The notes under the pieces were generated by a model. It was not told the DNA's origin and ran no database searches. It saw nothing but the letters and a program-made list of their open reading frames with translations. A stretch of 64,000 bases of DNA from an uncultured delta proteobacterium (lineage in GTDB: Bacteria; Myxococcota; UBA727; VGSZ01): the NCBI GenBank assembly GCA_963775425.1, contig CAVZJB010000009.1, positions 272,616 through 336,615 on the forward strand. Reading direction: 5' to 3'. A program made the translations under genes and the position numbers. Shown here in pieces: positions 7,949 through 27,687 of this stretch (positions are counted from its first letter, which is position 1; every line of letters starts with the position of its first letter).

Positions 7949-8881
7949 CTACGGGCCGATGGACCAGGCGGCGAACGAGTCGAACGACGTCACCATGCGG
8001 TTGGACCGGAGCACGACGCCGCCGGCGGGCGTGGCGGTGGCGTCGACGACGGTGGCCACGCCCTCGAGCTGGCACTGCAGCGAGCCGTCGAGCACCGCGC
8101 GCAACAAGAGCGTGGGTCCGACGATCTGATCGGGGCTCGCGAGGTCGCTCGACGCGCGGAATTCGCTGGCGTCGTTGTTCACCAGCCCGTCGATGACGAG
8201 CGCCTGCGCGCCGTCGCCGATGACGGGGAAGCACATCACGCCGTCGGCGTCGCCGGTCATGCCGACGCCGATGCCCGCGCTCGCCGTGTTGAACTGGCCG
8301 CCGAGCTCGAAGCTCTCCACGGTGAAGCGGAGCTCGACGACGATGTGGTCGGTGGGGGCGATGTCGGTGCGCCGCAGGATCTCGGCGTCGGCGGTGGCCG
8401 TGTGATGAAGCTGATCGTTCGAGAGGCTCCATGAGCCGGCGCCGGTCCACGCCGACGAGAGCACCACGCCGTCGAACGCGTCGAACGCGATGAGCACGTC
8501 GCCGCCCTGGTCGGGCCGTGGGTCGCACGCGTCGCCGACGCCGTCGCCGTCGCTGTCGGCCTGGGCCGCGTCCGAGGTGGTGGGGCAGTCGTCGCAGCGG
8601 TCGGCGACGCCGTCGTTGTCCTCGTCGTGGGTGCCGCAGGGATCGCCTTCGCCTTCGCCCTCGCCGCCTTCGCCCTCGCCCTCGCCCTCGCCGAAGTCGG
8701 TGATGCAGTGTCCGTCGCGGCAGACGTGGCCTACGAAGCAGTCGCTGTCGGCGTTGCAGATGACGCCGCTGTCGTCGGGCGGGCAGCCGCTCGTCGCCAC
8801 GATCGCCACGAACACGAGCGCGGCGCGCGCGAGCGCCGCTACGGGCGCGGTGGCGAGGCCGGAGACCGGGGGGCGGCGCAT
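7949..8881 (-). CDS. lipoprotein with thrombospondin type-3-like Ca-binding repeats and (GE)n linker
   Basis: MRRPP...LVFVAIVATSGC lipobox; GEGEGEGEGGEGEGEG; DEDNDGVADRCDDC and DSDGDGVGDACD (DxDxDG) repeats. Start placed at residue 100 of ORF 7949..9178. Confidence 0.7.
   Translation of the reverse strand: MRRPPVSGLATAPVAALARAALVFVAIVATSGCPPDDSGVICNADSDCFVGHVCRDGHCITDFGEGEGEGEGGEGEGEGDPCGTHDEDNDGVADRCDDCPTTSDAAQADSDGDGVGDACDPRPDQGGDVLIAFDAFDGVVLSSAWTGAGSWSLSNDQLHHTATADAEILRRTDIAPTDHIVVELRFTVESFELGGQFNTASAGIGVGMTGDADGVMCFPVIGDGAQALVIDGLVNNDASEFRASSDLASPDQIVGPTLLLRAVLDGSLQCQLEGVATVVDATATPAGGVVLRSNRMVTSFDSFAAWSIGP
8641..8692. repeat. (GGCGAG)n-type hexanucleotide repeat encoding a GE linker
   Basis: gccttcgccctcgccgccttcgccctcgccctcgcc seen directly. 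Confidence 0.5.
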
Positions 8882-8946
8882 GCGCCGAGGATAGCGCGCC
8901 GCAGGCGGGGTCGCCGTCTCCGTCGAGAGCCCTACGCGGCCGCGGT

Positions 8947-9300
8947 TCACTTGCAGGCGGCTTCGACCTTGTCGAGCGTCCACGTGTCGGGGCCATAGCG
9001 GCCGAGCACCACGCCGTCGGCGTCGATGAGCCACGCGCCCTTCACGCCGACCTTCACCATGTAGCCGGCCTCGGGCTTCCGGGCGGTCACGGTGGCGCCG
9101 TCGAGCGTGCCCCGCAGGACGCGCGCGACGTCGAGCACCAGCTCCTGTGAGGGGTTCAGCGTCCCCTTGTCGCTCCACGTCGCCGGTTTGTCGGGCGGCG
9201 GCGGCGTCGGCCCCGTGGCGGTGACCTCTTTGACCGTGGCTTCGACGACGAGCGTGGCGAGCGGGATGATCTCGTGGAGGGGCTCGGGGGGCTTGGCCAT
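8947..9300 (-). CDS. small hypothetical protein (117 aa)
   Basis: Uniformly high GC3. Sits between the calpain-like gene and the TSP3 lipoprotein gene on the same strand with short gaps. Confidence 0.5.
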   Translation of the reverse strand: MAKPPEPLHEIIPLATLVVEATVKEVTATGPTPPPPDKPATWSDKGTLNPSQELVLDVARVLRGTLDGATVTARKPEAGYMVKVGVKGAWLIDADGVVLGRYGPDTWTLDKVEAACK

Positions 9301-9319
9301 GCCGGACGTTATCCCGTCG

Positions 9320-11155
9320 TCAGGACACGCTCCACAGGACCGAGTACCACTTGGGCATGTCGTCGAGCTTGAGCTCGAAGATGCCGTCGTTCTTCCCGTT
9401 GCCGCGCGGCTCGGACTCGCCCCAGGGGTTCCTGAGCTTCACCATCTTCACGCCGTTTTTCTCGTAGGCGTCGACGACGGTGTAGGTGTGGTCGCCGTAG
9501 ACGCCGGTGTTGGCGAACAGCGCCTCGTGGCCCGCGTCGTCCTTGGTGCCGAGGCACACCGGGAGCTTGTGCGCGAGCTTGTCCTTGATGATGCGGAAGC
9601 ACGCGTCCTTGTTGCGCGCCGAGAAGTCCTTCTCGAGCGCCGGCCGGCCGAGGACCGCTTCGAAGAGGTCGGCGGAGCTGCCGCCGTCGCCGATGTCGTT
9701 GTAATCGCCGTTGAGCTGCGCCCACGCTTTCTCGAAGAGCGGGAACCACAGCTCCATCTTGTCGCGCGCGGTGGAGTTGGCCGACGAGCCGTACAGCGGG
9801 CCGCCCCAGGAGCGCGTGTAGAGGTCGGCGTCGACGGCCTCAAGGTGCTTCTTCGCGTACCCGTCGCGGTCACGCTTGAGCTCGACGACGTAGAACGTGC
9901 CGTTCGCCGGCAACGGCGGCTCGCCGCGCTTCTTCCTGTCCGCGTTCACGGTCTTCCGGTCGGCGTCGGTGGCCACGCGGATGATCTGCGTGAGCAGGTC
10001 GGGGCGCACGAGCGCGAGCGCCGCCGCCCCCGCCGGCGTGTAGCAGTCGCCGAGGTTGCCCTGCACCACGTCTTCCATGGCGGCGCCGTCCTTGAACAGC
10101 GGCCCCGTGTAGTTCTTGAGGTCGTAGCGCGAGCTGCCGTCGGGCTTGCGATCGTCCTTGTGCGGCTTGGGATCTTCGATCTCCACGGGAGCGCCCGTCG
10201 CGCCGCCCGCGCCGAGCACCGCCGAGGTGCCGGCGATCTCCTTGAAGTCCGTGTTGTTGCGGCCGTCGGTGGCCGCCACCTGGAACGTGTCGCCGGGCTT
10301 GCCGTTCAGCTTGGGGACGCCGGGGAAGCGCCCGGTGTCGTCCATGGTGATGTCGGTCTTTTCGCCGGTGCGCTCATTTTCGAAGCGCAGCACCGCGTAG
10401 GGCTCCGAGATCGGGCGGGAGTTGTTGTTGTTGGCGACGGCGATCTTGCCGCGTCCGGCGTCGGACAGCTCGATGCGCATGAGCGCCACTTCGGCGCCGC
10501 GCTTGTCGGCGCCGAGCTGGTCGGCGCGGATCACCATCCAGGCCGAGGCGTTGCCGTGCGCGTCCCGGGTGCGCACGCGCAGCCAGTCGCCGCCCTTCAG
10601 GTCGGTGGTGCCGGTGAGCCGGCCGGTGGCGTCGGTCTTTCCGAGGACGAAGGTGTCGTCGTCGTGAAGGCGCATCGCGGGGATGGCCGAGAGGTTCAGC
10701 GCCTCCACCGTCACGTTCGGCCCGGCGCTCCCTTCGATCTTCACCTTGCCGCGCACGAGCCTCATGTCGGTGATGTTGACGGGGCCGCTTTGCGGGTTCA
10801 CCGGCGCGCGGCCGACGAGCTGCTCGAGGAAGCGCTGCGCGTCGTCGGCGAGGGGGACGGCGCCGCCGTCGAGGATGGCCTCGACGTCCTTCTTCTCACG
10901 CTTGCTCAAGCCCTCGCGCACGATGGACATGAGCTCCTGCTTGGACACCGCGTTGTCGAGCTGGTCCCGCGCGCTCGTCATCGCGAGGCCGCTGCGGTCG
11001 GCGATGTCGGCGAGGAGGGCCTTCAGATCGTCGAGGCCGGCCTTCTTCGAGCCCGTGAAGGCGCGCGCGAGCTTGTCGACCTCGGCGCGGATGGAGCGGT
11101 CGCGGATGGTGACGGGCATCGGGACTCCCGGACGAGATGCCCCGTTATCGGTCAC
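9320..11155 (-). CDS. calpain-like cysteine protease (peptidase family C2) with unknown N-terminal domain
   Basis: Catalytic-triad motifs: Cys in VQGNLGDCY, His in GDHTYTVVDAY, Asn in KLRNPWGESE. No signal peptide. 4-nt overlap with the upstream gene. Confidence 0.8.
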   Translation of the reverse strand: MTDNGASRPGVPMPVTIRDRSIRAEVDKLARAFTGSKKAGLDDLKALLADIADRSGLAMTSARDQLDNAVSKQELMSIVREGLSKREKKDVEAILDGGAVPLADDAQRFLEQLVGRAPVNPQSGPVNITDMRLVRGKVKIEGSAGPNVTVEALNLSAIPAMRLHDDDTFVLGKTDATGRLTGTTDLKGGDWLRVRTRDAHGNASAWMVIRADQLGADKRGAEVALMRIELSDAGRGKIAVANNNNSRPISEPYAVLRFENERTGEKTDITMDDTGRFPGVPKLNGKPGDTFQVAATDGRNNTDFKEIAGTSAVLGAGGATGAPVEIEDPKPHKDDRKPDGSSRYDLKNYTGPLFKDGAAMEDVVQGNLGDCYTPAGAAALALVRPDLLTQIIRVATDADRKTVNADRKKRGEPPLPANGTFYVVELKRDRDGYAKKHLEAVDADLYTRSWGGPLYGSSANSTARDKMELWFPLFEKAWAQLNGDYNDIGDGGSSADLFEAVLGRPALEKDFSARNKDACFRIIKDKLAHKLPVCLGTKDDAGHEALFANTGVYGDHTYTVVDAYEKNGVKMVKLRNPWGESEPRGNGKNDGIFELKLDDMPKWYSVLWSVS

Positions 11156-12372
11156 ATGTGGGATACGGTGCTACATCCCCGCGCGGCCCGCGCCGCGGGG
11201 AGCACCTTGGCGCCAACCGCGCGGATCTCCGCGACTTCCGCGCTGTGACCGGCCTCCCACGCCAGGAAGCGGGTGCGGATCGCGGCGGCGCGATCGGGGC
11301 CGGCGACCCAGGCCGCGGCGGCGGCGTCGCCGCGCAGGAGCGCATCGAGCACGCGCTCCCCGAGCAGCGCCTTGGCGTGAGACGACTCCCACCACGAGCC
11401 TGCGTCGGGCGCCTCGTCGAAGGCGAGGCCCTGGAAGTCGAGCAGCACGACGTCGAGGCCCTCGCGGCGCTCTTTGTCGACGATGCGCTCGATGGTGGCC
11501 TTCCACCGATCCTGCGCGTCGAGCAGCCCGGCCTGCTCGATGACCTCGAGGTGACGCGCGTGCACCGGCGAGAAGTAGAGGCGCACGCGGGTGTGTCCGC
11601 GCCGCGCGAGCTCGAGCAGGCGCGCGAGGTCGCGGAGCCCGCGCGTGTCCTCGACGGGCTCGCCGTGGATGGCGAGCGGGTTCGCGCAGGAGTAGTTGCC
11701 GAAGTAGTCCTTCTCCGACGCGCGGAAGTACGCGAGCGGGCCGCCGGCGCGCGCGCGATCGCGCTCCTGGAAGCGCGGGTCGCGTTGGCCGAGCTGCGTG
11801 AAGTAGCTCGGGTCGTGGCGGCGCCGGAGGGTGGACAGCGACGAGCGCAGCGCGTCTTCGGACAGGACGGTGGAGCCGAAGTCGCTCCAGGCGGACCAGC
11901 GCTGCGGCGCGCCGCTGCTGTCCACGGCGTAGCGGGCCTCGTCGAGCGTGGCGGGGATCTTGGCGGCGGCGTCGAACGCCAGGAGATCGAGGCCGACGAC
12001 GATGAGCTTCTGCGGGACGAGGGCGTTCGCGTGTTGGTACAGGCGCACCCAGTCGTAGGGCTGCGAGCCGTTGACGGCGGCGTTCACCACGTGGAGGCCG
12101 CCGAACGCGGGGCTCTGTGGATCGAGCATCACCTGCGCGCGCGACGTCCCGAGGATGATCCCCTCGGGCTTCTCGCTGCGCACCAGGTGGACCTTGAAGA
12201 GGCGATCGTGTCCCTCCTGCGCCGGGCGGTTGGGGAGCCAGGGCGTGTGAACGATGCGCAGGACGTCGTAGGGATCGATGACGACGTTGATGCCGGCGAC
12301 GACGCCGACGCCGAAGAGCAGCAGCGCGACGAACGCGAGCAGGAAGCGCTCCGGCTGGTGCAGGCGAATCAC
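11152..12372 (-). CDS. membrane-anchored hypothetical protein (N-terminal TM, large extracytoplasmic/cytoplasmic domain)
   Basis: MIRLHQPERFLLAFVALLLFGVGVVAG TM anchor. High GC3. ATGA overlap with the calpain-like gene. Confidence 0.6.
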   Translation of the reverse strand: MIRLHQPERFLLAFVALLLFGVGVVAGINVVIDPYDVLRIVHTPWLPNRPAQEGHDRLFKVHLVRSEKPEGIILGTSRAQVMLDPQSPAFGGLHVVNAAVNGSQPYDWVRLYQHANALVPQKLIVVGLDLLAFDAAAKIPATLDEARYAVDSSGAPQRWSAWSDFGSTVLSEDALRSSLSTLRRRHDPSYFTQLGQRDPRFQERDRARAGGPLAYFRASEKDYFGNYSCANPLAIHGEPVEDTRGLRDLARLLELARRGHTRVRLYFSPVHARHLEVIEQAGLLDAQDRWKATIERIVDKERREGLDVVLLDFQGLAFDEAPDAGSWWESSHAKALLGERVLDALLRGDAAAAAWVAGPDRAAAIRTRFLAWEAGHSAEVAEIRAVGAKVLPAARAARGCSTVSHM

Positions 12373-12635
12373 GCGGCCAGCGTAGCCCGCCTCCGCCGCG
12401 GACGACGAGCGCTTCCGGCACGGGATCGTCTCGAGTCACGACGTCTGTGCGCGCCCACGCGAGCGCGCCGGCGTCCGCACCGCGCGCGCCATGTTCGTGC
12501 CGTGACCGTGCGAGGGCACCTGGCCCCGTTCGCCGCGCTGCTCCTGTGCGGCTGCCCGCTCGACGTGTCCCTGCAGGGGAAGCCGTGCGACGCCGGCCAC
12601 GCCTGCGCCGGCGGCTTCCGCCTGGCGCCGTAGGG

Positions 12636-14304
<1,669 letters not shown>

Positions 14305-14482
14305 GGCGGCGCTTTTACTGCGATTCGCACGGCGTGACGACCGGCTGCTGCGGCGCCGGCGCGCGAGGCATGAGCGAGAAGGCGCTGTGCGAAATCGCCG
14401 GCTGTCTCACGACGATGAGGTGGGTTTCTGCGTGCTACTGCCGAGATGAACGACCGCGCGCATCGCGCGCCACGAGGATTCG

Positions 14483-15691
<1,209 letters not shown>

Positions 15692-15839
15692 AAGGCTGAC
15701 GAAAAGCAAGGCTCGTAGCAGCACTCGGCGAAGCCGCCCACAAGGTGGCTCGCCGCGCGGAGTACGTGGCGAGGCACGTCGGCGCGCAAGAACCGCTTCG
15801 CGCCGCTTGTGTCACGCGCCTTCGCGGCGCGGGCCGCGT

Positions 15840-16171
15840 GCGCCGCATCGGAGATCTCCGGATTGTCGGCATCGGCGAGCACCGCGAGGACATCGGTGAG
15901 GAGCTTGTCGAACGCGGCGCGGTGATCGACGCGGAACCTGGCGAGGACGTCATGACTCGGGCGCAGATCGCCGACGATAAAACGGAAGGCGTCGTCGTTC
16001 GTCGTCAGCCGCGCGATCTCCCGGCCGCTCCCGATCCCTTGGCCTATCGCGTACAGCCACAGCGTCAGGAGCATCCGCGGGCTCGTCATCGGGCGCCCAC
16101 GTGAACCCGTCGAGGTCGAGCACACGGTCGATCAGGCGAGCCGGGTGCTCGGGGCCGATGAGGTCGTCCAC
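15840..16171 (-). mobile_element. IS5/IS1182-family transposase N-terminal remnant (frameshifted, DDE domain missing)
   Basis: Two overlapping frames read LIGPEHPARLIDRVLDLDGF and PRMLLTLWLYAIGQGIGSGREIARLTTNDDAFRFIVGDLRPSHDVLARFR, matching the InsH-type N-terminal region. No catalytic domain follows. Confidence 0.6.
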
Positions 16172-16413
16172 GGCCTGGGTCTTCAGCTTGGGCGCTCGGA
16201 ATCAGCGAAGGCGAGACAACGTCGCCACCGCCGGAGCTCCTTTCCGCTCCGCCGTGTGGCCGTAGCACCGGCCCCTTCCGGGTGGCTCGGATCAACACGT
16301 TACGCGTCAGCCCTGAGCCGAGCGGCGCTACGACATCCGGTGCGCCCGGATCGACCGGCGGTCCACGGCGGGGTGAGACGCCAGGCTTGCGTTGTTCCGC
16401 AACGGGAGCTCGC

Positions 16414-17763
16414 ATGCGCACGCGCGTCGTCGCAGTCGTCTTCGCCACCGTCGTCGTCGCCGGTGTCACGCTCGGCGCCACCGATCCGCCGCCGACGCGG
16501 ATCGCGCCGCACGGCGCGCAGGTCATGGCCGATCAGATCGCGGCGTTCGACGCGCTGAAGACCGACGTCACGGGCGAGGTGATCCCCACCGACCGGGCCT
16601 ACTGGAACACGCTCGTCCCCGAGGACAACGCCGCCACGCCCGCGCGCATCGCCCTCGGCAAGAAGCTCTACTTCGACCCGCGGCTGTCGCGCGACGGCAC
16701 CGTCGCGTGCGCGACCTGCCACGACGTCAGCCGCGGCTTCACCGACCGGCGCCCCGCGTCCGAGGGCATCGGCGGGCGCATCGGACGCAGAAACGCGCCC
16801 ACCACGTTGAACGCGGCGTTCTTCTCGTCGCAGTTCTGGGACGGGCGCGCCAAGACCCTGGAGGACCAGGCGAGGCTGCCGCCGCTGAACCCCGTCGAGA
16901 TGGGACAGCCCAACGGGGACGCGGTCGTCGCCGTGCTCACAGCGGACGCCGACTACCCGCGGCTGTTCCACGAGGCCTACGGACACCCGCCCAACTACGA
17001 AGACTTCGGCCGCGCCATCGGCGCCTTCGAAAGGACGCTCATCTTCCTCGACGCGCCCTTCGACCGCTTCATGAACGGACAGGTGGACGCCATCGACGAC
17101 GACGCCAAGGCCGGCATGGTGCTCTTCTTCGGCAAGGCGCGCTGCGCCTCGTGCCACACCCTGAGCGCCGTGAACCCCGTCGGCACCGACAACCGCTTCC
17201 ACAACATCGGCGTCAGCGCGCGGCACCAGGACTTCGAGAAGCTCGCGCGGCAGGCGGTGGCGGCGCTCGACAAGACGGGCGGCGGGGACCGCGCCGTCGA
17301 CGAGCTCGCGCTCTCCAGCGATCTCGCCGAGCTCGGCCGCTTCGTCGTCACCAAGCACCGAAGCGACATCGGGGCGTTCAAGACGGAGCAGTTGCGCAAC
17401 GTCGGGCTCACGCCGCCGTACATGCACGACGGCTCCATGCAGACGCTCTGGGACGTCGTCGACCACTACAACAAGGGCGGCGAGGCGAACCCGTACCTCG
17501 ACGGCGGCATCGAGCCCCTCGACCTGAGCGAGCAGGAGGTGAACCAGCTCGTCGCCTTCATGTTCACGCTCACCGACGCGCGCTTCGCCGATGACAACCG
17601 CACGCAATTCAATGAGCAGCGGGCGAAGGCGCAGAAGTCGCGCCCGTTCCGCGACGACGAGCTCGCGCACAGGACAGTGCTGCCGTTTCAGCAACGCCTG
17701 GCACGCGAGGACCGCGCGGCGGGCTCCGTCGACGGCGGGACGCGAGGGAAGGGGGCGCCATGA
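16414..17763 (+). CDS. ccpA: di-haem cytochrome c peroxidase (CcpA/MauG family)
   Basis: Signal peptide MRTRVVAVVFATVVVAG. Two CxxCH motifs (CATCHD, CASCHT). GGGAG about 7 nt upstream of the ATG. The low-GC3 upstream part of the ORF is rejected. Confidence 0.85.
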   Translation: MRTRVVAVVFATVVVAGVTLGATDPPPTRIAPHGAQVMADQIAAFDALKTDVTGEVIPTDRAYWNTLVPEDNAATPARIALGKKLYFDPRLSRDGTVACATCHDVSRGFTDRRPASEGIGGRIGRRNAPTTLNAAFFSSQFWDGRAKTLEDQARLPPLNPVEMGQPNGDAVVAVLTADADYPRLFHEAYGHPPNYEDFGRAIGAFERTLIFLDAPFDRFMNGQVDAIDDDAKAGMVLFFGKARCASCHTLSAVNPVGTDNRFHNIGVSARHQDFEKLARQAVAALDKTGGGDRAVDELALSSDLAELGRFVVTKHRSDIGAFKTEQLRNVGLTPPYMHDGSMQTLWDVVDHYNKGGEANPYLDGGIEPLDLSEQEVNQLVAFMFTLTDARFADDNRTQFNEQRAKAQKSRPFRDDELAHRTVLPFQQRLAREDRAAGSVDGGTRGKGAP

Positions 17764-18872
17764 AGGGCTGGAAGAGCGTTGAGACCAGGTACCTCGAGAA
17801 GCGCGAGCGCGCGTTGCGCGCGCTGGCCGGCCTAAACCGCCGCGGCTTCCTCAAAGCGTCGGCCGCGGCGGCCGCGGCGGCGGCGGGGCTCGTGTACCCG
17901 CGCAGCTTCCAGCCCATCGCCATCGCGCGCGCCGCGGAGCTCGACGGTGCGCCCTTCCGAATCGCGTACATCTCGGACTCGCACCTGTACGAGACCAGCC
18001 TCAACCCGCGCTTCGTCAACGCCATCATGCGCGCCGTCGACGACGTCAACGCGCTCGATCCGCAGCCGGACTTCGTCATCTTCGGCGGCGACCTGGCGCA
18101 GCTCGGCCAGGCCAAAGAGCTCGAGCTGGGCGCGCAGATCTTGAAGGAGCTGAAGGCGCCGCTGCACGTCATGGTGGGCGAGCACGACTGGTACTTCGAC
18201 CTGGGCGAGAAGTGGCGCGACCTGTTCGGCGAGCCCACCTACTCGTTCGACCACCGCGGCGTGCACTTCGTGGTGCTCAACAGCGTCATCGAGGACGACT
18301 TCTGGACCGCGCGCAAGCTCACGCCCATGGAGCGGATGCGCACCGTGGCCGGGCTCGACGACAAGATCCAGTCGCGTTTCCAGGTCGGCGCGAAGCAACG
18401 CGCGTGGCTCGAGAAGGACCTGGCCCACCTGCCGGCGTCGACGCCGCTCGTCGTCTTCTCGCATTCGCCGCTCTACAAGCTCTACCGCCCCTGGAACTTC
18501 TGGACGGAGGACGCCGAAGAGGTGCAGGCGCTCCTCAAGCGCTTCTCGCACGTGAGCGTCATCCACGGGCACACGCACCAACTTCTCTTGAATCACGTCG
18601 ACAACATCAACTTCTACGGGATGCTGTCGACGGCGTGGCCCTGGCCGTACGCGCCCGAGGGGCTGCCGCCGCTCACCGTGCAGATGGGCCGCGCCGATCC
18701 ATTCGATCCGCAGGACGGCTGCGGCGACGGCACGTTCTCCCTGTCCGACGACGGCGTGGTCGAGAGCATCTACGACCTCTGGAATCGGAACCCGATCACC
18801 GTGCGCGCGAGCTACCTGTCGTCGAACGGCAAGGTCGACGTCCCGCCCGCGCCTGCTCTCGTCAGCTACTGA
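17760..18872 (+). CDS. Tat-exported calcineurin-like metallophosphoesterase
   Basis: Twin-arginine motif NRRGFLKASAAAAAAAAG. Phosphoesterase motifs DSHL, GGDL, GEHD, GHTH. ATGA overlap with ccpA. Confidence 0.8.
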   Translation: MKGWKSVETRYLEKRERALRALAGLNRRGFLKASAAAAAAAAGLVYPRSFQPIAIARAAELDGAPFRIAYISDSHLYETSLNPRFVNAIMRAVDDVNALDPQPDFVIFGGDLAQLGQAKELELGAQILKELKAPLHVMVGEHDWYFDLGEKWRDLFGEPTYSFDHRGVHFVVLNSVIEDDFWTARKLTPMERMRTVAGLDDKIQSRFQVGAKQRAWLEKDLAHLPASTPLVVFSHSPLYKLYRPWNFWTEDAEEVQALLKRFSHVSVIHGHTHQLLLNHVDNINFYGMLSTAWPWPYAPEGLPPLTVQMGRADPFDPQDGCGDGTFSLSDDGVVESIYDLWNRNPITVRASYLSSNGKVDVPPAPALVSY

Positions 18873-18897
18873 ACGTCGCGCCGCGCAGGGGGTCTTC

Positions 18898-19557
18898 ATG
18901 TCGCGTCAGCGTCTCTTCATCGTCACCGCGCTCGCCGGCGCCGTCTCCGTCTGCGCCACGCTCGCGGGTTGCCGCGCGCCCCCGCCGCCGCCGCCGGCCG
19001 GCAAGGAGGGCGTCGAGGTGCTCCTGTGCGACGGAAAGACGAAGACCGTGATGCCCACGGGTACGCCCGGCACGGCCATCGCGGGCGCGCTGATGAGCCA
19101 GTGGCTGCGCAATAACCCCACGAAGGACTGGGACGTGGCGGAGGCCGACGCGCACACCCTCGTGCCCGCGTACGACAACGCGTCGCTCGTCGGCGATCCG
19201 CAGGGCGCGACGTACGGCGGCGTCACCAAGGACGACGTCGCCCTGTGGAAGAGCGAGAGCGAACGCTTCGCGCGCGCCGGCTCACGCGTGTTCCACAGCG
19301 CCGATGAGCTCGGCAGCACCATCGGCGTCTCCTGCGACATGTGTCACCCGAACGGATCGAACACGCACCCGGAGACCTTCCCGAAGTACGAGCCGCAGGT
19401 CGGCCGCGTCACCCTGCTGCGCGACATGATCAACTGGTGCATCGAGCACCCGGTGAAGGGCAAGGCGCTCGCGGGCGACGACCCGCGCATGCGCGCCCTC
19501 GAGGCGTACATCCTCGCGCAGCGCTCCGGCGTGCCGCTCGCCTACGGCAAGCGCTGA
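18898..19557 (+). CDS. c-type cytochrome lipoprotein (single CxxCH)
   Basis: Lipobox TLAGC, poly-Pro linker, haem motif VSCDMCHPNG. Confidence 0.7.
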   Translation: MSRQRLFIVTALAGAVSVCATLAGCRAPPPPPPAGKEGVEVLLCDGKTKTVMPTGTPGTAIAGALMSQWLRNNPTKDWDVAEADAHTLVPAYDNASLVGDPQGATYGGVTKDDVALWKSESERFARAGSRVFHSADELGSTIGVSCDMCHPNGSNTHPETFPKYEPQVGRVTLLRDMINWCIEHPVKGKALAGDDPRMRALEAYILAQRSGVPLAYGKR

Positions 19558-19598
19558 TCGCGCCGCGCGGTCGCGGCGCTCGTCGGCGCCGCGCGTCT

Positions 19599-20090
19599 TC
19601 AGTTGAGGTCGATGTCGGGGACGGGGATCTTGGCGAACGGCACGCCCTCGTCGACGAGGCGCTGCTCTTCCTCGGCGGTGGACGTGCCGTGGATGGGCCG
19701 CGCCTCCTCCTCGCCGTGGTGGATGGCCAAGGCGCGGCTGGCGAACGTGTCGCCGACGTCCTCGGCGTGGGTCCGCACGGCGCGGAGCAGGCGGGAGAGC
19801 GCGCGCTGCACCTCCAGCGGCATCGTCGCGTCGGGCACCGGCCGCTGCGCGTCGGGCGCCGGCCGCGGCGCGTCGGGGGCCGGCGCGGGGGTCTTGTCCG
19901 GCGCCGTCGAGCCCCGCGTGGCGATGCCGCGGAAGCTCGGGCGCTGCGCGACGTCGCCGCTGCCACACGTGGGGCAACAGAGCTCACCGCCGTCGCGCGC
20001 GCCTTCGAAGGCGGCGGCGTTGTCGTACCACCCCTCGTAGAGGTGTCCGGCGGCGCAGGCGAGGTCCACGACGAACATCGGTACGAGCAT
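19599..20090 (-). CDS. DUF1178-like zinc-ribbon protein
   Basis: MFVVDLACAAGHLYEGWYDN...LCCPTCGS arrangement typical of DUF1178. Confidence 0.55.
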   Translation of the reverse strand: MLVPMFVVDLACAAGHLYEGWYDNAAAFEGARDGGELCCPTCGSGDVAQRPSFRGIATRGSTAPDKTPAPAPDAPRPAPDAQRPVPDATMPLEVQRALSRLLRAVRTHAEDVGDTFASRALAIHHGEEEARPIHGTSTAEEEQRLVDEGVPFAKIPVPDIDLN

Positions 20091-20124
20091 ACGGTTCGCG
20101 ACCCCGGCGCGACCACCGGGGGCG

Positions 20125-21036
20125 TCACAGCATGCGGCGCCACAGCACGTTGCCGGCGTGCACGTCGACGGCGAGGACCCCCGCGCCCGCCGCCTCGCGC
20201 GCGACGACGAGGATCAGGCTGTCGCCCTCGAGGTGCGCGGCGGCGAGCGCCGCGCCCGGCAGGTCGGGTGCCAGGACCACGTCCCACAGCCGCGCGCCGT
20301 CGGCGGTGCGCACGCCGGCCACGGCCTGCTGCGAGGCGTGGCCCTTGCGGTCCATCTTGTCGTCGTGCCGGAAGAACGCGATGGCGCCGTCGTCCGCCGT
20401 GAGCTGCGCGCTGCTCGCGGCGTCGCCGACGACCTTGGCGTGGATGTACTCCTCGTCGCCGTAGGGCTTCTCCTCGCCCCCGGGCCCGCGCAACAGCCGC
20501 GCGCGCGCCTCGTGACCGGGCTCCACGAGCTCGCCGCCGGGCATCTCGAGGGAGTCGCGGTCAAAGCGCGGCGGCGCCCGGGTCACCCGCACCGCCGACG
20601 TCCGCACCTGCTCGGCGCGTCCGGTGCCGTCCACGCGCCAAGAGGTGCCGCCGGTGGTGGCGTAGTACGCGGCGCCGGTGTCGTCGTCGACGATCGGCGC
20701 GTGGTCCATGAGGTCCTCGAGGTGCACGCCGCGCTGCGCGAGGGTGTCGTCGTCGACGGCGACGGCGCGGGTGGCCGTGGAGAGCGCGTACACCGCGTCC
20801 TTGCGATCCTTGCACCACACGAGCCCGCGCGCCGGGCGGCTGCACTTGAGCGCCGCGGGGATGACGACGGCCACAGGCGCGCTTCGCCCGTCGAGCGGCA
20901 CGAACGATACGCGCGTGGCGTTGCGGCCGGAGCGGCCGAAAGGCTGGTCGCCGGAGCGAACGTGCTCGACGACCGTCGCGAGCGGCGGGTCCTCGGTGAA
21001 CCAGACCGCCTGGACGCGTCCGTGCAGGTGGAACAC
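20125..21036 (-). CDS. hypothetical protein (start unresolved; frame stays open upstream through a TM-like segment)
   Basis: High GC3. The upstream in-frame sequence reads GGPALLLLGIVAAAAWNFAPFGW with no ATG/GTG/TTG, so the true start may be a non-canonical codon or hidden by a sequence error. Confidence 0.45.
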   Translation of the reverse strand: MFHLHGRVQAVWFTEDPPLATVVEHVRSGDQPFGRSGRNATRVSFVPLDGRSAPVAVVIPAALKCSRPARGLVWCKDRKDAVYALSTATRAVAVDDDTLAQRGVHLEDLMDHAPIVDDDTGAAYYATTGGTSWRVDGTGRAEQVRTSAVRVTRAPPRFDRDSLEMPGGELVEPGHEARARLLRGPGGEEKPYGDEEYIHAKVVGDAASSAQLTADDGAIAFFRHDDKMDRKGHASQQAVAGVRTADGARLWDVVLAPDLPGAALAAAHLEGDSLILVVAREAAGAGVLAVDVHAGNVLWRRML

Positions 21037-21154
21037 GCGCGTCTCCCAGCCGAACGGCGCGAAGTTCCACGCGGCGGCGGCGACGATGCCGAGCAGCAGC
21101 AGCGCCGGACCGCCAATCGCAGCTTGTCGGCGAGATCCCCGCGTCCCGCGTTGC

Positions 21155-22690
21155 TCACGGGCCGACCTCGACGGCGCCCGCGGTGCACGACGACGCCTCG
21201 CGCGGGTGCCCGAGCGCGTCCGCCGCGGGGCAGTCCGCGCCCGCGCCGACGGCGGGGGAGCCCGCGGCGGGCGCGCGCACGGGGACGACGCCGCTGTCGT
21301 CGATGTCGCTGAGGGTGACGTCCTTTACCGTGACGTCCGGTGCGCACAGCGCGTCGGGGTCGTCGCTGCCGCCGCCGCTGCGCTCGACGGGGAACTGGAA
21401 GCTGCCGGCGCCGCCGTCGAGGGCGGTGGTGCAGCTCACGGGGTTGAAGCCGTTGCCCGCGACCGAGTCGAGGACGAGCGTGTTCCTCATCGTCACGCCG
21501 GCGCCGTTGCCGACGATGGCGCCGCCGAACGCGACGTCGCCGGGTGCGGCGTTGCCGGCGAAGGTGCAGTTGACCACGGCGCCGCCGAGGACGCCGTCGA
21601 GGAAGACGCCGCCGCCAAGGCCGGCGCTGGCGGTGTCGTCGAGGAAGCTCGTGTTTTCGAGGTTCACCGTGGCGCCCGGGCCGAAGTACGCGCCGCCGGC
21701 GGCGCGCGCGGTGCAGCCGACGACGGTGGAGGCGCTCATGGTGACGACGGTGCCCTGCAGGTAGAGGCCGCCGGCCATGGAGGGGTCGTGGTCGTCGATG
21801 ACGGCGCCATCGACGACGGTGCGGTCGATGTCGGTGGGCTCGGTGAAGTCGTACGCGACGCGAAAGACGGCACCGCCGAAGGCGTTTGCCCTGGAGCGCG
21901 TGATGTGGACGCCGCAGAGCGTGACGCTGCGGCCCTCGCCGTCGATGGAGAGGGTGCCGCCGTTGCCGCCGTCGCCGGGGTTTCCGCCGGTGCCGGTGGC
22001 CTGGTTGTCGTCGAAGTCGGAATTGACGACGACGAGGTCGTTGCCGAGGTTGCCGAGCGCCCCGCCGTTGCTGCAGCGGTTGCCCGAGAAGGTGGTACCG
22101 ACCACGGTGGTGAAGCCGCCGCCCTCGGAGAAGATGGCGCCGCCCGCGGTGTCCTGGCCGTCGACGTTGCCGACGTCGTCGACGAAGGAGCAGGCGATGA
22201 CGTCGAGGGTGCCGCCGACGCGGGCGATGGCCGCGCCGCCGCCGCCGAGGTCGGTGCCGGACGCGCTGCCGTCGGCGAAGCCGAGGCGCTGGACGACGAC
22301 GTGGGGCGTGTCGCGGTCGAAGGTGGAGTCGATGCGCAGGATGCGCGTGCTGCCGCCGCCGGAGAGCGTGACGGTGCCGCCGCCGTCGATGACGACGTCC
22401 TCGGTGAGGACCTTCTCGGCGGTGACGGTGACGGTGACGGGGGCGGGGCCGCAGTCGAAGCGGATCTTGGCGGCGTGCTGCCCGAGGGCGGCGTCGAGGG
22501 CGGCCTCGGTGCAGGAGGCTGCGCCGCCGTCGCCGACGACGACGGCGTCGCCGACCTCGACGGGCTCGAGCGGGGCGGGACAGACGACGGCGGCCCCCGC
22601 GCCCGGCGAAGGCGGAGGCGAAGGCGCCGGCCCGCAGGCGATTGCGAGGGCGGTGGCGAGCAGGCCGGCGGCGGAGCGGGCGAGCGGCAT
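21155..22690 (-). CDS. secreted lipoprotein with right-handed parallel beta-helix repeats
   Basis: Lipobox LATALAIAC. Repeated G-rich beta-helix turns (GGAIF.., NCTFAGN.., VVNSDFDDN..). Confidence 0.7.
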   Translation of the reverse strand: MPLARSAAGLLATALAIACGPAPSPPPSPGAGAAVVCPAPLEPVEVGDAVVVGDGGAASCTEAALDAALGQHAAKIRFDCGPAPVTVTVTAEKVLTEDVVIDGGGTVTLSGGGSTRILRIDSTFDRDTPHVVVQRLGFADGSASGTDLGGGGAAIARVGGTLDVIACSFVDDVGNVDGQDTAGGAIFSEGGGFTTVVGTTFSGNRCSNGGALGNLGNDLVVVNSDFDDNQATGTGGNPGDGGNGGTLSIDGEGRSVTLCGVHITRSRANAFGGAVFRVAYDFTEPTDIDRTVVDGAVIDDHDPSMAGGLYLQGTVVTMSASTVVGCTARAAGGAYFGPGATVNLENTSFLDDTASAGLGGGVFLDGVLGGAVVNCTFAGNAAPGDVAFGGAIVGNGAGVTMRNTLVLDSVAGNGFNPVSCTTALDGGAGSFQFPVERSGGGSDDPDALCAPDVTVKDVTLSDIDDSGVVPVRAPAAGSPAVGAGADCPAADALGHPREASSCTAGAVEVGP

Positions 22691-22825: not shown

Positions 22826-23614
22826 ATGTCCATGAACGTCCTCGGCCAAAGCGAACGCCCGGCAGGCGCCCTGGCGCTCCCGCTGGCCATCACCGCCCTG
22901 CTCGCGCTCGCCGCTTTGTCGGCCCCCGGCTGCATCGTCTACGACGACCGCGGCGGCGGCAACGACTGGAGCTGGAACGGCGGCGACTGCGGCGCGTGCA
23001 CCGCGAGCGACGACGCCGACGGCGACGGCCTGCCGGACGCCGACGAGCCCGGGTGCAACCTCGACCCCAACAACCCCGACACCGACGGCGACGGCGTCCT
23101 CGACGGCGACGAGGACCTCGACGGCGACGGCTTCACCACGTCGCAGGAGCTGGCCTTCGGCTCCAACTGCGCCGACGGCAGCGACTTCCCCGGCAGCGCC
23201 GGCGAAGGCGAGGGCGAGGGCGATGTCGACGGAGACGTCGACCAGGACGGCGACGGCATGACGGCGAGCGAAGAGGACGAGTGCGGCACGAGCGACTGGT
23301 TCTCGGACAGCGACAACGACGGCGTGCTCGACGTCGACGAGGACCTCGACGGCGACGGCTACAGCAACGCCTGGGAGATCGCGGCCGGGACGAGCTGCTG
23401 GGATCCGACGAGCCACCCGCCGGCGGGCAGCCAGCCCCCCGACGGCGTCGACCCGCCGCCCGCGGACAGCGACCAGGACGGCGTGTCCGACGCCGACGAG
23501 GCCGCCCGCGGCACCGACCCCAACAACCCCGACACCGACGGCGACGGCCAGTGCGACGCCGCCGAGATCGAGTGCGGCAGCTCTCCGCTCGACCCGTTCA
23601 TCACCTGCACCTGA
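22826..23614 (+). CDS. lipoprotein with thrombospondin type-3 (DxDxDG) calcium-binding repeats
   Basis: MSMNVLG...LAALSAPGC lipobox. Multiple DADGDG/DTDGDG/DLDGDG/DSDNDG repeats. gagg SD about 8 nt upstream. Start is residue 717 of ORF 20678..23614 (coordinate arithmetic checked). Confidence 0.75.
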   Translation: MSMNVLGQSERPAGALALPLAITALLALAALSAPGCIVYDDRGGGNDWSWNGGDCGACTASDDADGDGLPDADEPGCNLDPNNPDTDGDGVLDGDEDLDGDGFTTSQELAFGSNCADGSDFPGSAGEGEGEGDVDGDVDQDGDGMTASEEDECGTSDWFSDSDNDGVLDVDEDLDGDGYSNAWEIAAGTSCWDPTSHPPAGSQPPDGVDPPPADSDQDGVSDADEAARGTDPNNPDTDGDGQCDAAEIECGSSPLDPFITCT

Positions 23615-24056: not shown

Positions 24057-27000
24057 TCAGGCCGCGGAGACGTCGACGCGGCTCTTGCCGCCGCCGAGCG
24101 GGACCACGCGGACCTGCGCGCCGATGCGCTCGGCGAGCGCGGGCAGGTGCGAGATGACGCCGATCTGCCGGCCGGTGGCGCGCAGCGCCTCGAGCGCCGC
24201 CAGCGCCGCCTCGAGGGTCTCCGGGTCGAGGCTCGAGAAACCCTCGTCGATGAACAGGGACTCCACCGGCGTCCGCGCCGCCGACAGCGCCGACAACCCC
24301 AGCGCCAAGGACAGCGACACCAAGAAGGTCTCTCCGCCCGACAGCGAGCCCACCGCGCGCGGCTCGTCGCCGCTTTCGCAATCGACGACGACGAGATCGA
24401 GGTCGAAGCGCGCGCGCTTGTCGCCGCCGCCGGCGCGCTCGAGGCGGTAGCGCGGCGCGAGCATCGCGAGCTGCGCGTTGGCGTGCACGAGCAGCGCGTC
24501 GAGCGTGAGGCTCTGCGCGAACACGCGGAAGCGCGCGCCGTCGGCGGAGCCAATCACGTCGCTCAAGCGCTCCCAGGTGAGCGCCCGTGCGCGCTGCGCC
24601 TCGAGCCTCGGGAGGAGCAGCCCCGCGCGCCGCCGCGCATCGTCGTCGCGCGCGAGCGCCGCGCGGGCGCCGGCCCAGCGCTCGGTCGCGACGGCGAGCG
24701 CCGCCCGCGCGTCGTCGACGGTGTCCGGCGCCTGCGCCGGCGCGCCCTCGCCGTGCGCCTGCGCCGCCGACGCGCGCTCCGCGAGCACGGCCTCCGCGCG
24801 GGCGACGGCGTCGTCGAGCGCGCGCACCGCGGCGCGGGCGCGCTCGAGGGCGCCGTCGTCGAGAGCGCAGGCGCGGGCGAGCGCGTGATCGTCGTCGACG
24901 TCGCTGACGTCGCTGACGTCGCTGACGCGCGGCCCGGCGGCGCCGAGGCCCCCGTCGGGGACGGCGGGCCCCCCTCGGGCGAGCCGCCCACCGGGGCGCG
25001 CCGCGCGGCGGGCCGCCTCGAGCGCGGCGCGGGCGTCGTCGTGCGCGCGGCGGGCGCGCTCGTCGCCGTCGAGGGCGCCGGCGCGCCCGGCCTCGGCCTG
25101 GCCGCAGCGCACCTCGGCGGCGGCCAGGGCGACGGCGGCCTCGGCCGCGGCGGCGCGCGCCTCGTCGAGGGCGGCGGTCAGGCGCCCGCGGACCTCGGCG
25201 ACCGACGCGCCGTCGAACAGCGCCGCGCGGGCCCGCAACAGCTCCGCCTCGTGCGCCCGCGCCTCCGCCGCGCGTGACGCCAGCGACGCCTCGCGCTCGG
25301 CGGCGGCGGCGCGGCGCTGCTCGAGCGCGCGCAGGGCGGGCTCGCTGTGCGCGAGCGCGGCCCGGGCGCGCAGCGCGATCTGCTGTTGCGCGCGCAGCCC
25401 CTCGACGCGCGGCTGCAGCGCGCGCAGCAAGGCGCGCGGCGAGGCGAGCGCATCGGCGGACGCGGCGCGCGCGTCCCCCTCCGCGCCGCCGTGCGGATCC
25501 AGGCGCGCGCGCAGAGACGCCGCGCGCTCGTCGCGGGCGACGACGCGGCCCTCGACGTCGTGCACGCGCAGGGCGAGGGCCTGCTCGTCCGCGGCGACCG
25601 CGGCCCCGGCGTCTGCCAACGCGCGCTCCATCGATCGGACGCGCTCGTCCGCGGCGCGCGCCCGGGCGAGCGCCGCGCGGCCGCGGGCGAGGGCGTCTTC
25701 GTCGAGGGCCGGCCCGCGCCGCTCGGCTTCGAGCCGCGCGACGTCCTCGTCGACGCGCGCCTGCTCGCCCGCCGCGTGCGCCAGCGCGCGCTCGATCTCG
25801 GCGGCGCGCGCCCGGGCCGCCGCGGCGCGCTCGCCCTGCCCACGCGCCGCGTCCTCGAGCGCCTCCAGCGGCGCGGCGGGCGCGTCGACCGCGGCGTCGT
25901 CCATCGGCGCGCCGTCGACGGCGGGGTGCGCGCGGCTCCCGCACAGCGGACACGGCTCGCCGTCGCGCAGCCGCGCGCGCCGCGCGCACGAGAGCGCCTC
26001 GCTCGCGCGGGCGCGCGCCTCGTCCGCGGCGCGCGCCTCGTCGACGGCGGCCGCGCGATCTGCGCGCAAGGCCGCGGCGCGGCTGAGCACACGCGCCCGC
26101 TCGGCGTCGAGCGCGCGGCGGTGCATCAAATCGGCCGCGGCCCCGGCGAGGATGCCGGCGGCGTCGTCGACGTCGCCGTCGCCCACCACCGCCGCGAGCG
26201 CCGCGCGCGCCTGGCCCAGCTCCGCGCCGGCGGCCGCGAGGCTCGCCGCCGCTTCGTCGCGCGCCGCGCGGGCCTCGTCCCGGTTGCGGGCCGCCGCGGC
26301 GGCGAACGCGCGCGCGCCCTCGAGCTCGGTGTCGAAGCGCGCGAGCTTGTCGAGGTCTGCCGCCAGCGCCTCCCACGACGGGATCAGCGCCACCAACGAC
26401 GGCTCGCGGGCGAGCACCTCTTCGGCGCGGTGGAGATCGCCGGCCGCCACCGCGCGGCTGACGGTCAGCTCGGCGAGCTCGCGCTCCACGCCGGCGAGCT
26501 CGTCCGCGGCGCGCGCGTGCGCGTCGACGGCGGCGGCGGTGCCGGCGCGCACGATCTGTTCGTCGAGCCGCAGCGCGCGCTCGAGCTCCGGCTCCGCGTC
26601 GGCGAGCACGCGGGCATGGTGGACGAACGCCTCGTCGGCGCGTGCGCGCCGCTCGCGCGCGCTGGCGACGTCGCCGCGCGCCCGTCGCTCGTCGTCACGC
26701 GCGCGCTCCGCCGCCCGCGCCGCACGCTCCGCCGCCGCCCGCGCCGCGCGCTCCGCCGCCGCGGGCGCCCGCAGCGGCCACACCCGCTCGAGCTCCGCGA
26801 GCTCCTGCGCCGCGGGGGCGCTCGCGCGGGCGCGCCGGGCGGCGTCGACGTCGACGGCCGCGGCTGCGGCGGCGCGCTCGAGCTCCAGCGCGCGCTCGTC
26901 GTGCCGCCGGCGCGCCTCGGCCGCCTCGAGCGCCCCTGCGGCGGCGGCGCGCGCGGCGTCGGCGTCGGCGTCGGCGCTCTCGAGGCACCGGCGCTCGTCG

Positions 27001-27687
27001 TCGCCGGCCGGCGGCATGGCGCGCAGCTCGTCCTCGAGGGAGCGCAGCGCGCGCGCCTCCTCCTTGCTGCGCTCGTGGGCCTGCACGGAGAGCGTCGAGT
27101 ACAGATCCGTGCCCGTGATCTTTTCGAGGAGCGCCGCGCGGTCGTCGGCGCGCGCCTTCAAGAAGCTCGCGAAGCCGCCCTGGGCGAGCAGCACCGAGCG
27201 GCAGCACTCGTCGAAGGTGAGGCCGAGGCGGGCGCGGATGTGCTCGAGCGTGTCCTCCTTGCCGTCGCCGGCGCGCTCGCCGGTGACGACGTCATGAAGC
27301 GTGAGCACCTCTTCCTGCAGGCGGCCGAAGGCCTGGCCGCGGGCGCGCCGCACCGTCCAGCGCGCGCGCCACACGCGCCCGTCGACGCCGCTGAAGTCCA
27401 CCTCGGCGAACGCGGTGGCGGCCATCCGGCGCACGAGGCTCTTGGGATCGTTGGCGCGCAGCGACGCGCCGTCCTTCTTGAGCGGAGATCCGCCGCGCCC
27501 CGACAGCCGCGGCGTGCGGTTGAAGAGCGCGAGGCACATCGCGTCGAGGAGCGTGGACTTGCCCGAGCCGACGGGGCCGGCGATGGCGAACAGGCCGAGG
27601 TGGCACAGCGGCGGCTGCGCGAGAATCGACGGCGAAGCCGCCCTTGAGCGACGCGAGGTTGGCGCCGCGGATGGCGAGGATCCTCAC
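24057..27687 (-). CDS. sbcC: SbcC (Rad50-like) ATPase subunit of the SbcCD nuclease, with 1-nt insertion frameshift about 20 codons after the start
   Basis: N-terminus VRILAIRGANLASLKGGFAVD, then after the shift LAQPPLCHLGLFAIAGPVGSGKSTLLDAMCLALF (Walker A). Long coiled coil with CPLCGS zinc hook. C-terminus has SLSGGETFLVSLSLALGL and DEGFSSLD (signature/Walker B). GTGA overlap with sbcD. Confidence 0.85.

Follow-up and report, generated by a model that had tools for sequence, protein, structure and literature searches.

A 64,000-nucleotide (nt) stretch of DNA from an uncultured delta proteobacterium of the Myxococcota (contig CAVZJB010000009.1, positions 272,616 to 336,615; henceforth termed the window) encodes a calpain-like cysteine protease followed directly by the gene for a protein of 117 amino acids (aa), and comparison with related loci shows that these two genes form a conserved unit. 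We propose that the 117-aa protein is the co-encoded inhibitor of the calpain, a reading based on sequence, predicted structures and analogy to known systems to which we assign a probability of roughly 0.5; the partner would hold the protease inactive by placing an N-terminal tail in its active-site cleft. A preliminary description of the locus had joined the pair to an upstream membrane protein and a downstream lipoprotein with thrombospondin type 3 (TSP3) repeats in a four-gene, calcium-responsive cassette, an appealing but unsupported idea that is corrected here. Rawlings (2015; PMC4631099) describes prokaryotic calpains as uncharacterized, in agreement with the statement in that description that they have rarely been studied. 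A linked partner makes regulation of these essentially uncharacterized enzymes directly testable.

The calpain and the 117-aa protein form a conserved gene pair

For the analysis of gene neighborhoods, we fetched 80 genome loci around calpain relatives and searched them by tblastn with the three proteins that neighbor the calpain in the window; 61 metagenome loci were included as well. Adjacency was scored in a set of 111 loci comprising those with full-length calpains from the genome and metagenome scans, two loci of close relatives (L142 and L143) and the window. The gene for the 117-aa protein lies directly downstream of the calpain gene in 83 loci and directly upstream in 3, giving adjacency in 86 of 111 (~77%), and is absent in 25. 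Since these partner-less loci cluster in three clades plus one single locus in a neighbor-joining tree, the pairing looks ancestral with few losses. The reverse test, in which the 117-aa protein served as query against metagenome contigs, yielded 54 loci with enough flanking DNA, 51 of them with an adjacent calpain: 47 carry the calpain upstream, 4 show the reversed order, and the remaining 3 have none. In the reversed loci (L107, L109, L133 and L140), the small gene precedes a shorter type of calpain with a 4-nt overlap. Across loci, the two genes are separated by gaps of 1–129 nt.

The two proteins also diverge in step. Their pairwise distances correlate with r = 0.86, a value matched in none of 500 permutations, and mean divergence is alike at 0.40 for the calpain and 0.43 for the 117-aa protein. 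Clustering of open reading frames (ORFs) within 7 kb of the calpain revealed no other neighbor common to the relatives and the window. The conserved unit is therefore two genes and not four, and the 117-aa protein, which the preliminary description had correctly placed but treated as a minor member of its cassette, is the sole conserved partner of the calpain among its three neighbors in the window. The two genes are probably co-transcribed as a module in Myxococcota. One apparent “Rosetta stone” fusion of the calpain and the small protein (P0187) was discarded as a frameshift or gene-call artefact, since an out-of-frame stretch separates its parts.

The protease is a calpain homologue with an intact catalytic triad

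A Pfam scan assigned the protease to Peptidase_C2 (PF00648; MEROPS C2) with a score of 82.1 bits (E 4.8e-23; cut-off 23.8), a profile of the family matched calpains in the PDB with E-values down to 7.7e-23, and calpains were the sole matches in PDB sequence searches by phmmer and with the family profile. The strings QGNLGDCY, GDHTYT and LRNPWG, read earlier as the signature of an intact Cys/His/Asn triad, are all present. When aligned to calpain-1 and calpain-8, QGNLGDC corresponds to QGALGDC, GDHTY to RGHAY and RNPWG to RNPWG, so that the catalytic residues coincide with C115, H272 and N296 of calpain-1. All 111 full-length relatives retain Gln353, Cys359, His544, Asn564 and Trp566 without exception. 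These matches identify the protease as a true calpain homologue whose catalytic triad is intact and correctly aligned; it shares with eukaryotic calpains the fold and the same Gln/Cys/His/Asn/Trp set of the CysPc core.

An AlphaFold model computed with 27 homologues (mean predicted local distance difference test score, pLDDT, 84.8) comprises a helical domain, two β-sandwiches and the core, which adopts the two-lobed CysPc fold in the prediction. The roughly 300 residues ahead of the core, previously taken as one N-terminal domain of unknown function, are thus modeled as a helical domain, with helices at residues 8–101 in model m43f211bc35c4, and two immunoglobulin (Ig)-like sandwiches. The latter show weak Big_6 similarity in Pfam, whereas the helical domain (residues 1–101) has no Pfam or NCBIfam match, though it is conserved in the family. 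No hydrophobic segment or signal peptide was detected in either member of the pair by Kyte-Doolittle analysis (maxima of 1.23 for the calpain and 1.24 for its partner), in line with the cytoplasmic location proposed for the protease at the outset.

A protein identical to the 599-aa calpain exists in public data (P0001). A scan of GTDB species representatives returned 172 relatives, with two to three paralogues in several genomes, and the family was seen in metagenome-assembled genomes of Myxococcota type only. A second, shorter calpain type of 448–453 aa consists of one Ig-like domain and CysPc and is ~31% identical; the short calpains of L109 (138–2071) and L140 (114–1475) lack the helical domain. 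The window calpain shares with P0004, P0021 and P0023 a partly helical insertion of ~25 residues (VATDADRKTVNADRKKRGEPPLPAN...) in the first lobe of the core. It lies at calpain residues ~383–430 (the region is listed as 9932–10069, ~351–396) and is missing from most family members.

The partner is predicted to adopt a TIMP-like fold with a near-invariant N-terminus

The 117-aa protein has no Pfam or NCBIfam family and no match in PADLOC or among PDB sequences, and an exhaustive search of 1.84 billion representative proteins with a hidden Markov model returned only 155 relatives. Its AlphaFold model (pLDDT 87.8) starts with a flexible tail and a short helix, followed by a barrel of five strands and a helix at the C-terminus, i.e., an OB barrel with flanking helices at both ends as in TIMP-like proteins. 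The top Foldseek matches are NtA, NTR and TIMP domains, with template modeling scores of 0.55–0.60; the fold matches listed include neither a staphostatin nor a chagasin structure, and no inhibitor family was found in Pfam. A weak Pfam match to Roadblock/LC7 (E 0.01; 5 of 46 members) clashes with the predicted OB barrel and was rejected as spurious.

Conservation is most pronounced at the very N-terminus. Across 46 sequences, M1, A2, P4, P5 and E6 do not vary, and K3 and P7 reach at least 90% conservation; further conserved segments are K75-P76...Y80 and G100-R-Y-G-P-D105. In the model, residues 1–7 lie outside the folded core, and residues 1–3 have a pLDDT below 50. A census of 147 representatives found that 90 start with M-[AGSV]-x-P-P and that most of the rest differ little from this pattern (e.g., MA-x-R-P-E-P). 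On L107 and L109, the encoded partners carry Leu instead of Lys at position 3 (A-L-P-P-E-P), and the L133 partner starts M-A-E-R-P-E-P. Two sequences retrieved by the searches, P0307 (888 aa, with DUF7507/DUF11 repeats) and P0314 (a sigma-70 protein), were judged to be compositional or gene-call artefacts.

Methionine aminopeptidases remove the initiator Met ahead of Ala, so that the mature protein is expected to begin with the Ala at position 2. Seven secreted relatives have a signal-peptide-like leader that ends in an AxA-type site right before the motif (e.g., AHA|ALPPD, ASA|ALPPQ and ALA|ALPPT). Met excision in one case and leader cleavage in the other would therefore place the same Ala-x-Pro-Pro motif at the mature N-terminus in both compartments. 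This processed N-terminus would mirror the principle of the TIMPs, in which Cys1 takes this place and the processed end is critical for function, and the sequence logic fits; the window protein has a single Cys, and its residue after Met is Ala and not Cys1. Secreted or lipoprotein members without an adjacent calpain occur in L116 (5743–6336) and L124 (421–981) and as P0313, P0325, P0309, P0276 and P0282; beside P0313 and P0276 no recognizable protease was found, a context that we judged uninformative. Actinobacteria-like lipoprotein versions carry a Cys-containing extension of ~40 residues ahead of the A-L-P-P motif.

A further link to inhibition comes from P0294 (L148, 4814–6478), a single ORF of 554 aa in which a divergent member of the family (MALPSEP..., residues 1–124) is fused to a full serpin domain (residues 174–542). 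Because a gene for a BTAD/AAA_16 regulator adjoins it, P0294 probably derives from a different phylum.

Proposed inhibition of the calpain and possible alternative roles of the partner

We infer physical binding, inhibition and a role of the tail from the convergence of several lines of evidence: the observed linkage and co-divergence, the intact catalytic residues, an inhibitor-type predicted fold, the near-invariant N-terminus, the serpin fusion and the precedents discussed below. In the proposed mechanism, an active calpain-type protease, made up of the helical domain, two Ig-like domains and CysPc and devoid of a signal peptide, EF-hand/PEF or C2-like domain, would be produced together with a 117-residue partner that forms a cytoplasmic, disulfide-free TIMP/NTR-like OB barrel. 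Removal of the initiator Met would expose a free, flexible and proline-rich tail, Ala-Lys-Pro-Pro-Glu-Pro. The tail, the β3–β4 connector (K75-P76...Y80) and the G-R-Y-G-P-D loop would then dock on the protease and fill its active-site cleft, so that the enzyme stays inactive in the producing cell as long as the partner is in place. Calpastatin, too, uses a Pro-Pro containing segment, at the primed side of the cleft in calpain. Calpastatin differs in being intrinsically disordered, whereas the window partner is predicted to be a folded OB domain.

This logic would resemble that of staphopain/staphostatin and PopC/PopD, on a TIMP-like scaffold. Bacterial papain-fold cysteine proteases are known to have co-transcribed cytoplasmic inhibitors (PMC3462683). 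In the staphopain–staphostatin, SpeB–Spi and Bacteroides Bfp–Bfi systems, as in the window, the gene of a papain-superfamily protease adjoins that of a small protein; these partners comprise ~110–140 residues, are mostly β, lack a signal peptide, are encoded up- or downstream of the protease and are presumed to keep it silent in the cytoplasm (PMC3462683). The window pair shares the adjacent, same-strand and tightly spaced arrangement of genes for co-encoded inhibitors such as staphostatin (I57), Spi and chagasin/ICP (I42). PopC of Myxococcus xanthus is likewise a leaderless myxobacterial protease, with which PopD forms a complex that holds it back until a signal removes PopD (PMC6434023). PopC is, however, a subtilisin, PopD is unrelated to the 117-aa family, and the window pair is not known to undergo regulated degradation or secretion. 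The theme of a protease with a co-encoded inhibitor is thus already known, while the tightly linked pair of a calpain and a TIMP-like protein is undescribed; no conserved partner gene for bacterial calpains was found in the searched parts of PMC4631099.

Several observations weigh against the proposed inhibition. The TIMP/NTR-like assignment rests on a predicted structure, the Foldseek E-values are modest (1.8e-3 at best), and no sequence link to TIMP, NTR or NtA was recovered with 46 members in Pfam (E up to 10) or by phmmer against the PDB. The fold itself is not restricted to inhibitors, as the NTR-fold proteins agrin NtA and AceES-2 do not inhibit proteases. TIMPs act on metalloproteases by zinc chelation, which is inapplicable to a cysteine protease. 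The 117-aa protein further departs from the TIMP, NTR and NtA proteins by its lack of disulfides and of an N-terminal Cys and by its bacterial and cytoplasmic nature, and, since the protease encoded beside it is a cysteine and not a zinc enzyme, the chemistry of inhibition must differ from that of TIMP. The serpin fusion is known from a single contig, solo and secreted family members have no neighboring protease, and 25 of 111 calpains keep their catalytic residues without an adjacent partner, which is therefore not obligatory in cis.

A bacterial parallel in fold also points away from inhibition. In Listeria, a gene pair encodes the metzincin Mtz and the structurally TIMP-like lipoprotein Tim, which is a substrate of its protease and not an inhibitor (PMC8235301). 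Unlike the window pair, the Listeria pair comprises a metalloprotease, Mtz, and the protein that it cleaves, Tim, both of which are exported, and it originates from a phage. By extension of this precedent, the 117-aa protein could be a substrate or pro-factor that the calpain cleaves or trims at its tail to release an active fragment; tight linkage and co-divergence would fit any specific relation between an enzyme and its partner, and the flexible N-terminal tail could be the cleavage site. We regard this as unlikely: the proline-rich A-K-P-P-E-P tail sits at the extreme N-terminus, so that a cut would free only a few residues, the same mature N-terminus persists in secreted and solo relatives that have no protease gene beside them, and the fusion to a serpin points to inhibition.

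The same linkage and co-divergence would be expected if the 117-aa protein were a positive cofactor, i.e., a folding chaperone, a stabilizing subunit comparable to the calpain small subunit, or a substrate adaptor. OB and NTR folds are generic binding modules, as exemplified by the laminin-binding NtA domain of agrin, and a chaperone role has been suggested for staphostatin too (PMC3462683). An activating role nevertheless seems equally improbable given the 25 paralogous or orthologous calpains that retain all catalytic residues with no adjacent partner, and an invariant free N-terminal peptide together with the serpin fusion is more typical of an inhibitor.

A variant that retains inhibition casts the pair as effector and immunity factor: the leaderless protease would be exported by a non-classical route to attack other cells, and the 117-aa protein would protect the producer. 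The two genes are adjacent, both products lack a signal peptide, Ig-like domains are a common feature of extracellular proteins, several genomes hold two to three paralogues, and PopC offers a case of secretion without a signal peptide in M. xanthus (PMC6434023). Searches of Pfam, NCBIfam and PADLOC, however, gave no match to PAAR, Rhs, LXG, MIX or other trafficking, defense or toxin families, the neighborhoods beyond the pair are ordinary and syntenic and do not resemble secretion-system loci, and the partner is not hypervariable, its conservation being similar to that of the protease. We consider this variant slightly less probable still than a substrate or cofactor. A function in anti-phage defense was set aside: PADLOC returned no match for any of the four proteins, and Pfam and NCBIfam showed only Peptidase_C2 and weak Big_6.

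If the inhibitor reading holds, it would add a new inhibitor family for papain-superfamily proteases and a bacterial TIMP/NTR fold used against a protease, and it would offer a way into the function of these calpains, of which many Myxococcota have two to three paralogues through expansion of the family. More tentatively, with odds somewhat below even, the family may represent a new inhibitor class in which a cytoplasmic, disulfide-free TIMP/NTR fold blocks the calpain cleft with a processed Ala-x-Pro-Pro-Glu-Pro tail. In that case, no endogenous regulator of any bacterial calpain would have been known before the 117-aa protein, and N-terminal-wedge inhibition on a TIMP scaffold would occur in bacteria and act on more than one class of protease. 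With the secreted and serpin-fused relatives, its reach would include extracytoplasmic targets.

The canonical calcium switch is absent from the calpain

Equivalents of calpain residues are given in the numbering of µ-calpain. The calcium ligands of the calpain core were drawn from Rawlings (PMC4631099). Core site 1 retains its acidic ligands, D350 occurring in 110 and E463 in all of the 111 sequences, whereas site 2 is shortened by the loss of ~19 residues between the equivalents of E302 and D331. In none of the 111 relatives is the residue equivalent to E333 acidic, its place being taken by a hydrophobic residue or His, and Arg does not occur at the position of R104 in any of them. A Pfam scan detected no EF-hand/PEF or C2-like domain in the calpain, which ends with the CysPc core. 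As site 2 is truncated and the R104/E333 switch residues are lacking, the canonical two-site calcium switch is, by sequence, absent from this calpain, in contrast to eukaryotic calpains, while metal may still bind at core site 1. The bacterial homologues covered by Rawlings (2015; PMC4631099) are similar in that they have no EF-hand domains and retain at most site 1.

These findings bear on the four-gene, calcium-responsive operon put forward in the preliminary description, in which membrane protein, calpain, small protein and TSP3 lipoprotein would act together. Such an operon is very improbable and largely refuted. The four genes do lie on the same strand with short gaps in the window, TSP3-like repeats are present in the lipoprotein, the ligands of calcium site 1 are conserved, and L155 carries a different TSP3_bac protein divergently upstream of its calpain. 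Yet the lipoprotein lies beside the calpain in 0 of 116 related loci, and TSP3-like motifs show no enrichment around calpain genes, with 0.18 per 10 kb within 3 kb of them versus 0.15 farther away. The presumed calcium-binding partner is moreover predicted to be exported, whereas the protease has no export signal, which would place the two in different compartments. This genome is rich in TSP3 and GE-linker lipoproteins; TSP3 proteins are common here and occur near the calpain only by local synteny.

The membrane protein and the lipoprotein are insertions outside the module

Neither the membrane protein nor the lipoprotein has a homologue in the 80 genome calpain loci by tblastn. Two of the three proposed partners of the calpain are thus not conserved with it, an outcome that the preliminary description had itself named as speaking against its cassette. 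Beyond the window, the membrane protein precedes the calpain only in the close relatives L142 and L143. In L143, L154 and L155, a conserved syntenic frame consists of the gene of a 511-aa lipoprotein, the calpain gene, the small gene (lost in L143), an opposite-strand gene of ~385 aa and a gene of ~810 aa. The window lipoprotein, encoded after the small gene and ahead of the next conserved gene, has no counterpart in any of the three loci, and L154 and L155 lack the membrane protein beside the calpain. By synteny with these loci, the membrane protein and the lipoprotein are lineage-specific insertions.

The family of the membrane protein is tiny, with 11 clusters in 5.8 billion proteins. A Kyte-Doolittle peak of 2.78 at residues 10–28 marks a single strongly hydrophobic segment at its N-terminus, in support of the N-terminal anchor assigned to it before. 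Pfam gave weak matches to Lipase_GDSL_2 (GDSL/SGNH) and DUF1574, a profile search of the PDB gave none, and G75, S77, R78, D312 and H332 are invariant in the family, with T76 nearly so. In L144 (1225–3988) and L146 (4464–7338), a gene for an MBOAT acyltransferase lies directly upstream of the membrane-protein gene. The protein is thus probably an SGNH-type periplasmic partner of an MBOAT enzyme for O-acylation of an envelope polymer and not a component of the protease system.

The lipoprotein has a signal peptide, a lipobox (ATSG|C) and two DxDxDGxxD repeats, so that its earlier naming as a lipoprotein with TSP3-type calcium-binding motifs stands in these features, but its TSP_3 match of 22 bits remains under the gathering score of 25 bits.

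Gene layout of the locus

The window has a G+C content of ~71%. Four successive minus-strand ORFs were found where they had been described, at 11152–12372, 9320–11155, 8947–9300 and 7949–9178. The last has a plausible start at ATG 8881, which gives a lipoprotein of 310 aa. The gaps reported earlier, 19 nt from the calpain stop to the start of the small gene and 65 nt from the small-gene stop to ATG 8881, are both correct, while the claimed ATGA overlap between the membrane-protein and calpain genes is not: the junction reads CAC-ATG-TGA, and a GTG start at 11155, which would make the calpain 611 aa long, would give a GTGA overlap. We place the start at 11119 since Met at this position is the start of all homologues in the 27-homologue alignment and a GGGAG Shine-Dalgarno sequence lies 6–7 nt upstream of the ATG. 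This leaves a 32-nt gap after the stop of the membrane-protein gene and a protease of 599 aa. The tight packing of the four genes is real, yet it does not speak for a conserved cassette. A terminator and promoter scan of 7.7–12.7 kb detected nothing beyond shuffled expectation and nothing on the minus strand. Positions of the features are collected in Table 1.

Table 1. Features of the calpain locus and of the adjoining insert, in window coordinates.
Feature	Position	Strand	Basis or remark
Calpain-like cysteine protease gene	9320..11119	-	599 aa from ATG 11119; Peptidase_C2, homologue starts, Shine-Dalgarno sequence
Calpain N-terminal all-helical domain, residues 1-101	10817..11119	-	AlphaFold model, conserved columns
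Two Ig-like β-sandwich domains, residues 114-200 and 216-300	10220..10780	-	Predicted model
Calpain protease core CysPc, residues ~330-599	9323..10132	-	
Codon of Gln353	10061-10063	-	
Codon of Cys359	10043-10045	-	
Codon of His544	9488-9490	-	
Codon of Asn564	9428-9430	-	
Codon of Trp566	9422-9424	-	
117-aa partner protein gene, candidate cognate inhibitor	8947..9300	-	Predicted TIMP/NTR-like OB fold
Codons of partner N-terminal motif Met-Ala-Lys-Pro-Pro-Glu-Pro	9280..9300	-	Proposed active-site-binding tail
N-terminally anchored SGNH-like protein, 406 aa, outside the module	11152..12372	-	Rare family, MBOAT-partnered elsewhere
Lipoprotein with (GE)n linker and two TSP3-like repeats, outside the module	7949..8881	-	TSP_3 match sub-threshold
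AMP-binding ligase gene (8.8-kb insert)	12436-14304	-	
GE-linker lipoprotein (8.8-kb insert)	14483-15691	+	
DUF772 transposase fragment (8.8-kb insert)	15559-16125	-	

Further features of the window

Relative to L143 and L154, an insert of ~8.8 kb (12436–21150) separates the gene of the 511-aa lipoprotein (21155–22690, minus strand) from the membrane-protein and calpain genes; in those two loci, the 511-aa gene directly abuts the membrane-protein gene or the calpain gene. Within the insert, the AMP-binding ORF appears damaged at its end: the AMP-binding_C match stops at residue 531 of 622, and the last ~90 residues are rich in Arg, Pro and Ala and look out of frame, which suggests a frameshift, either a pseudogene or a sequencing error, near the 3' end.

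Runs of (Gly-Glu)n, visible as GGCGAG/CTCGCC tandem repeats, occur in four genes of the window (8669–8692, minus; 14726–14767, plus; 32625–32696, minus; 58951–58992, plus). In the lipoprotein ORFs 7949–8881 and 14483–15691, the run follows shortly after the signal peptide, and (GE)n looks like a lineage-specific acidic linker of lipoproteins.

A second TSP3-repeat lipoprotein, with a stronger match (TSP3_bac, 69.7 bits in Pfam), is encoded at 22850–23614 on the plus strand and is likely orthologous to the 179-aa TSP3_bac protein divergently upstream of the calpain in L155. Farther along, a stretch of 79–81% G+C (24057–28973, minus strand) corresponds to the Ala/Arg/Glu-rich coiled coil of an ordinary sbcC homologue (1160 aa), followed by sbcD; an sbcC gene also lies near the calpain locus in L155.

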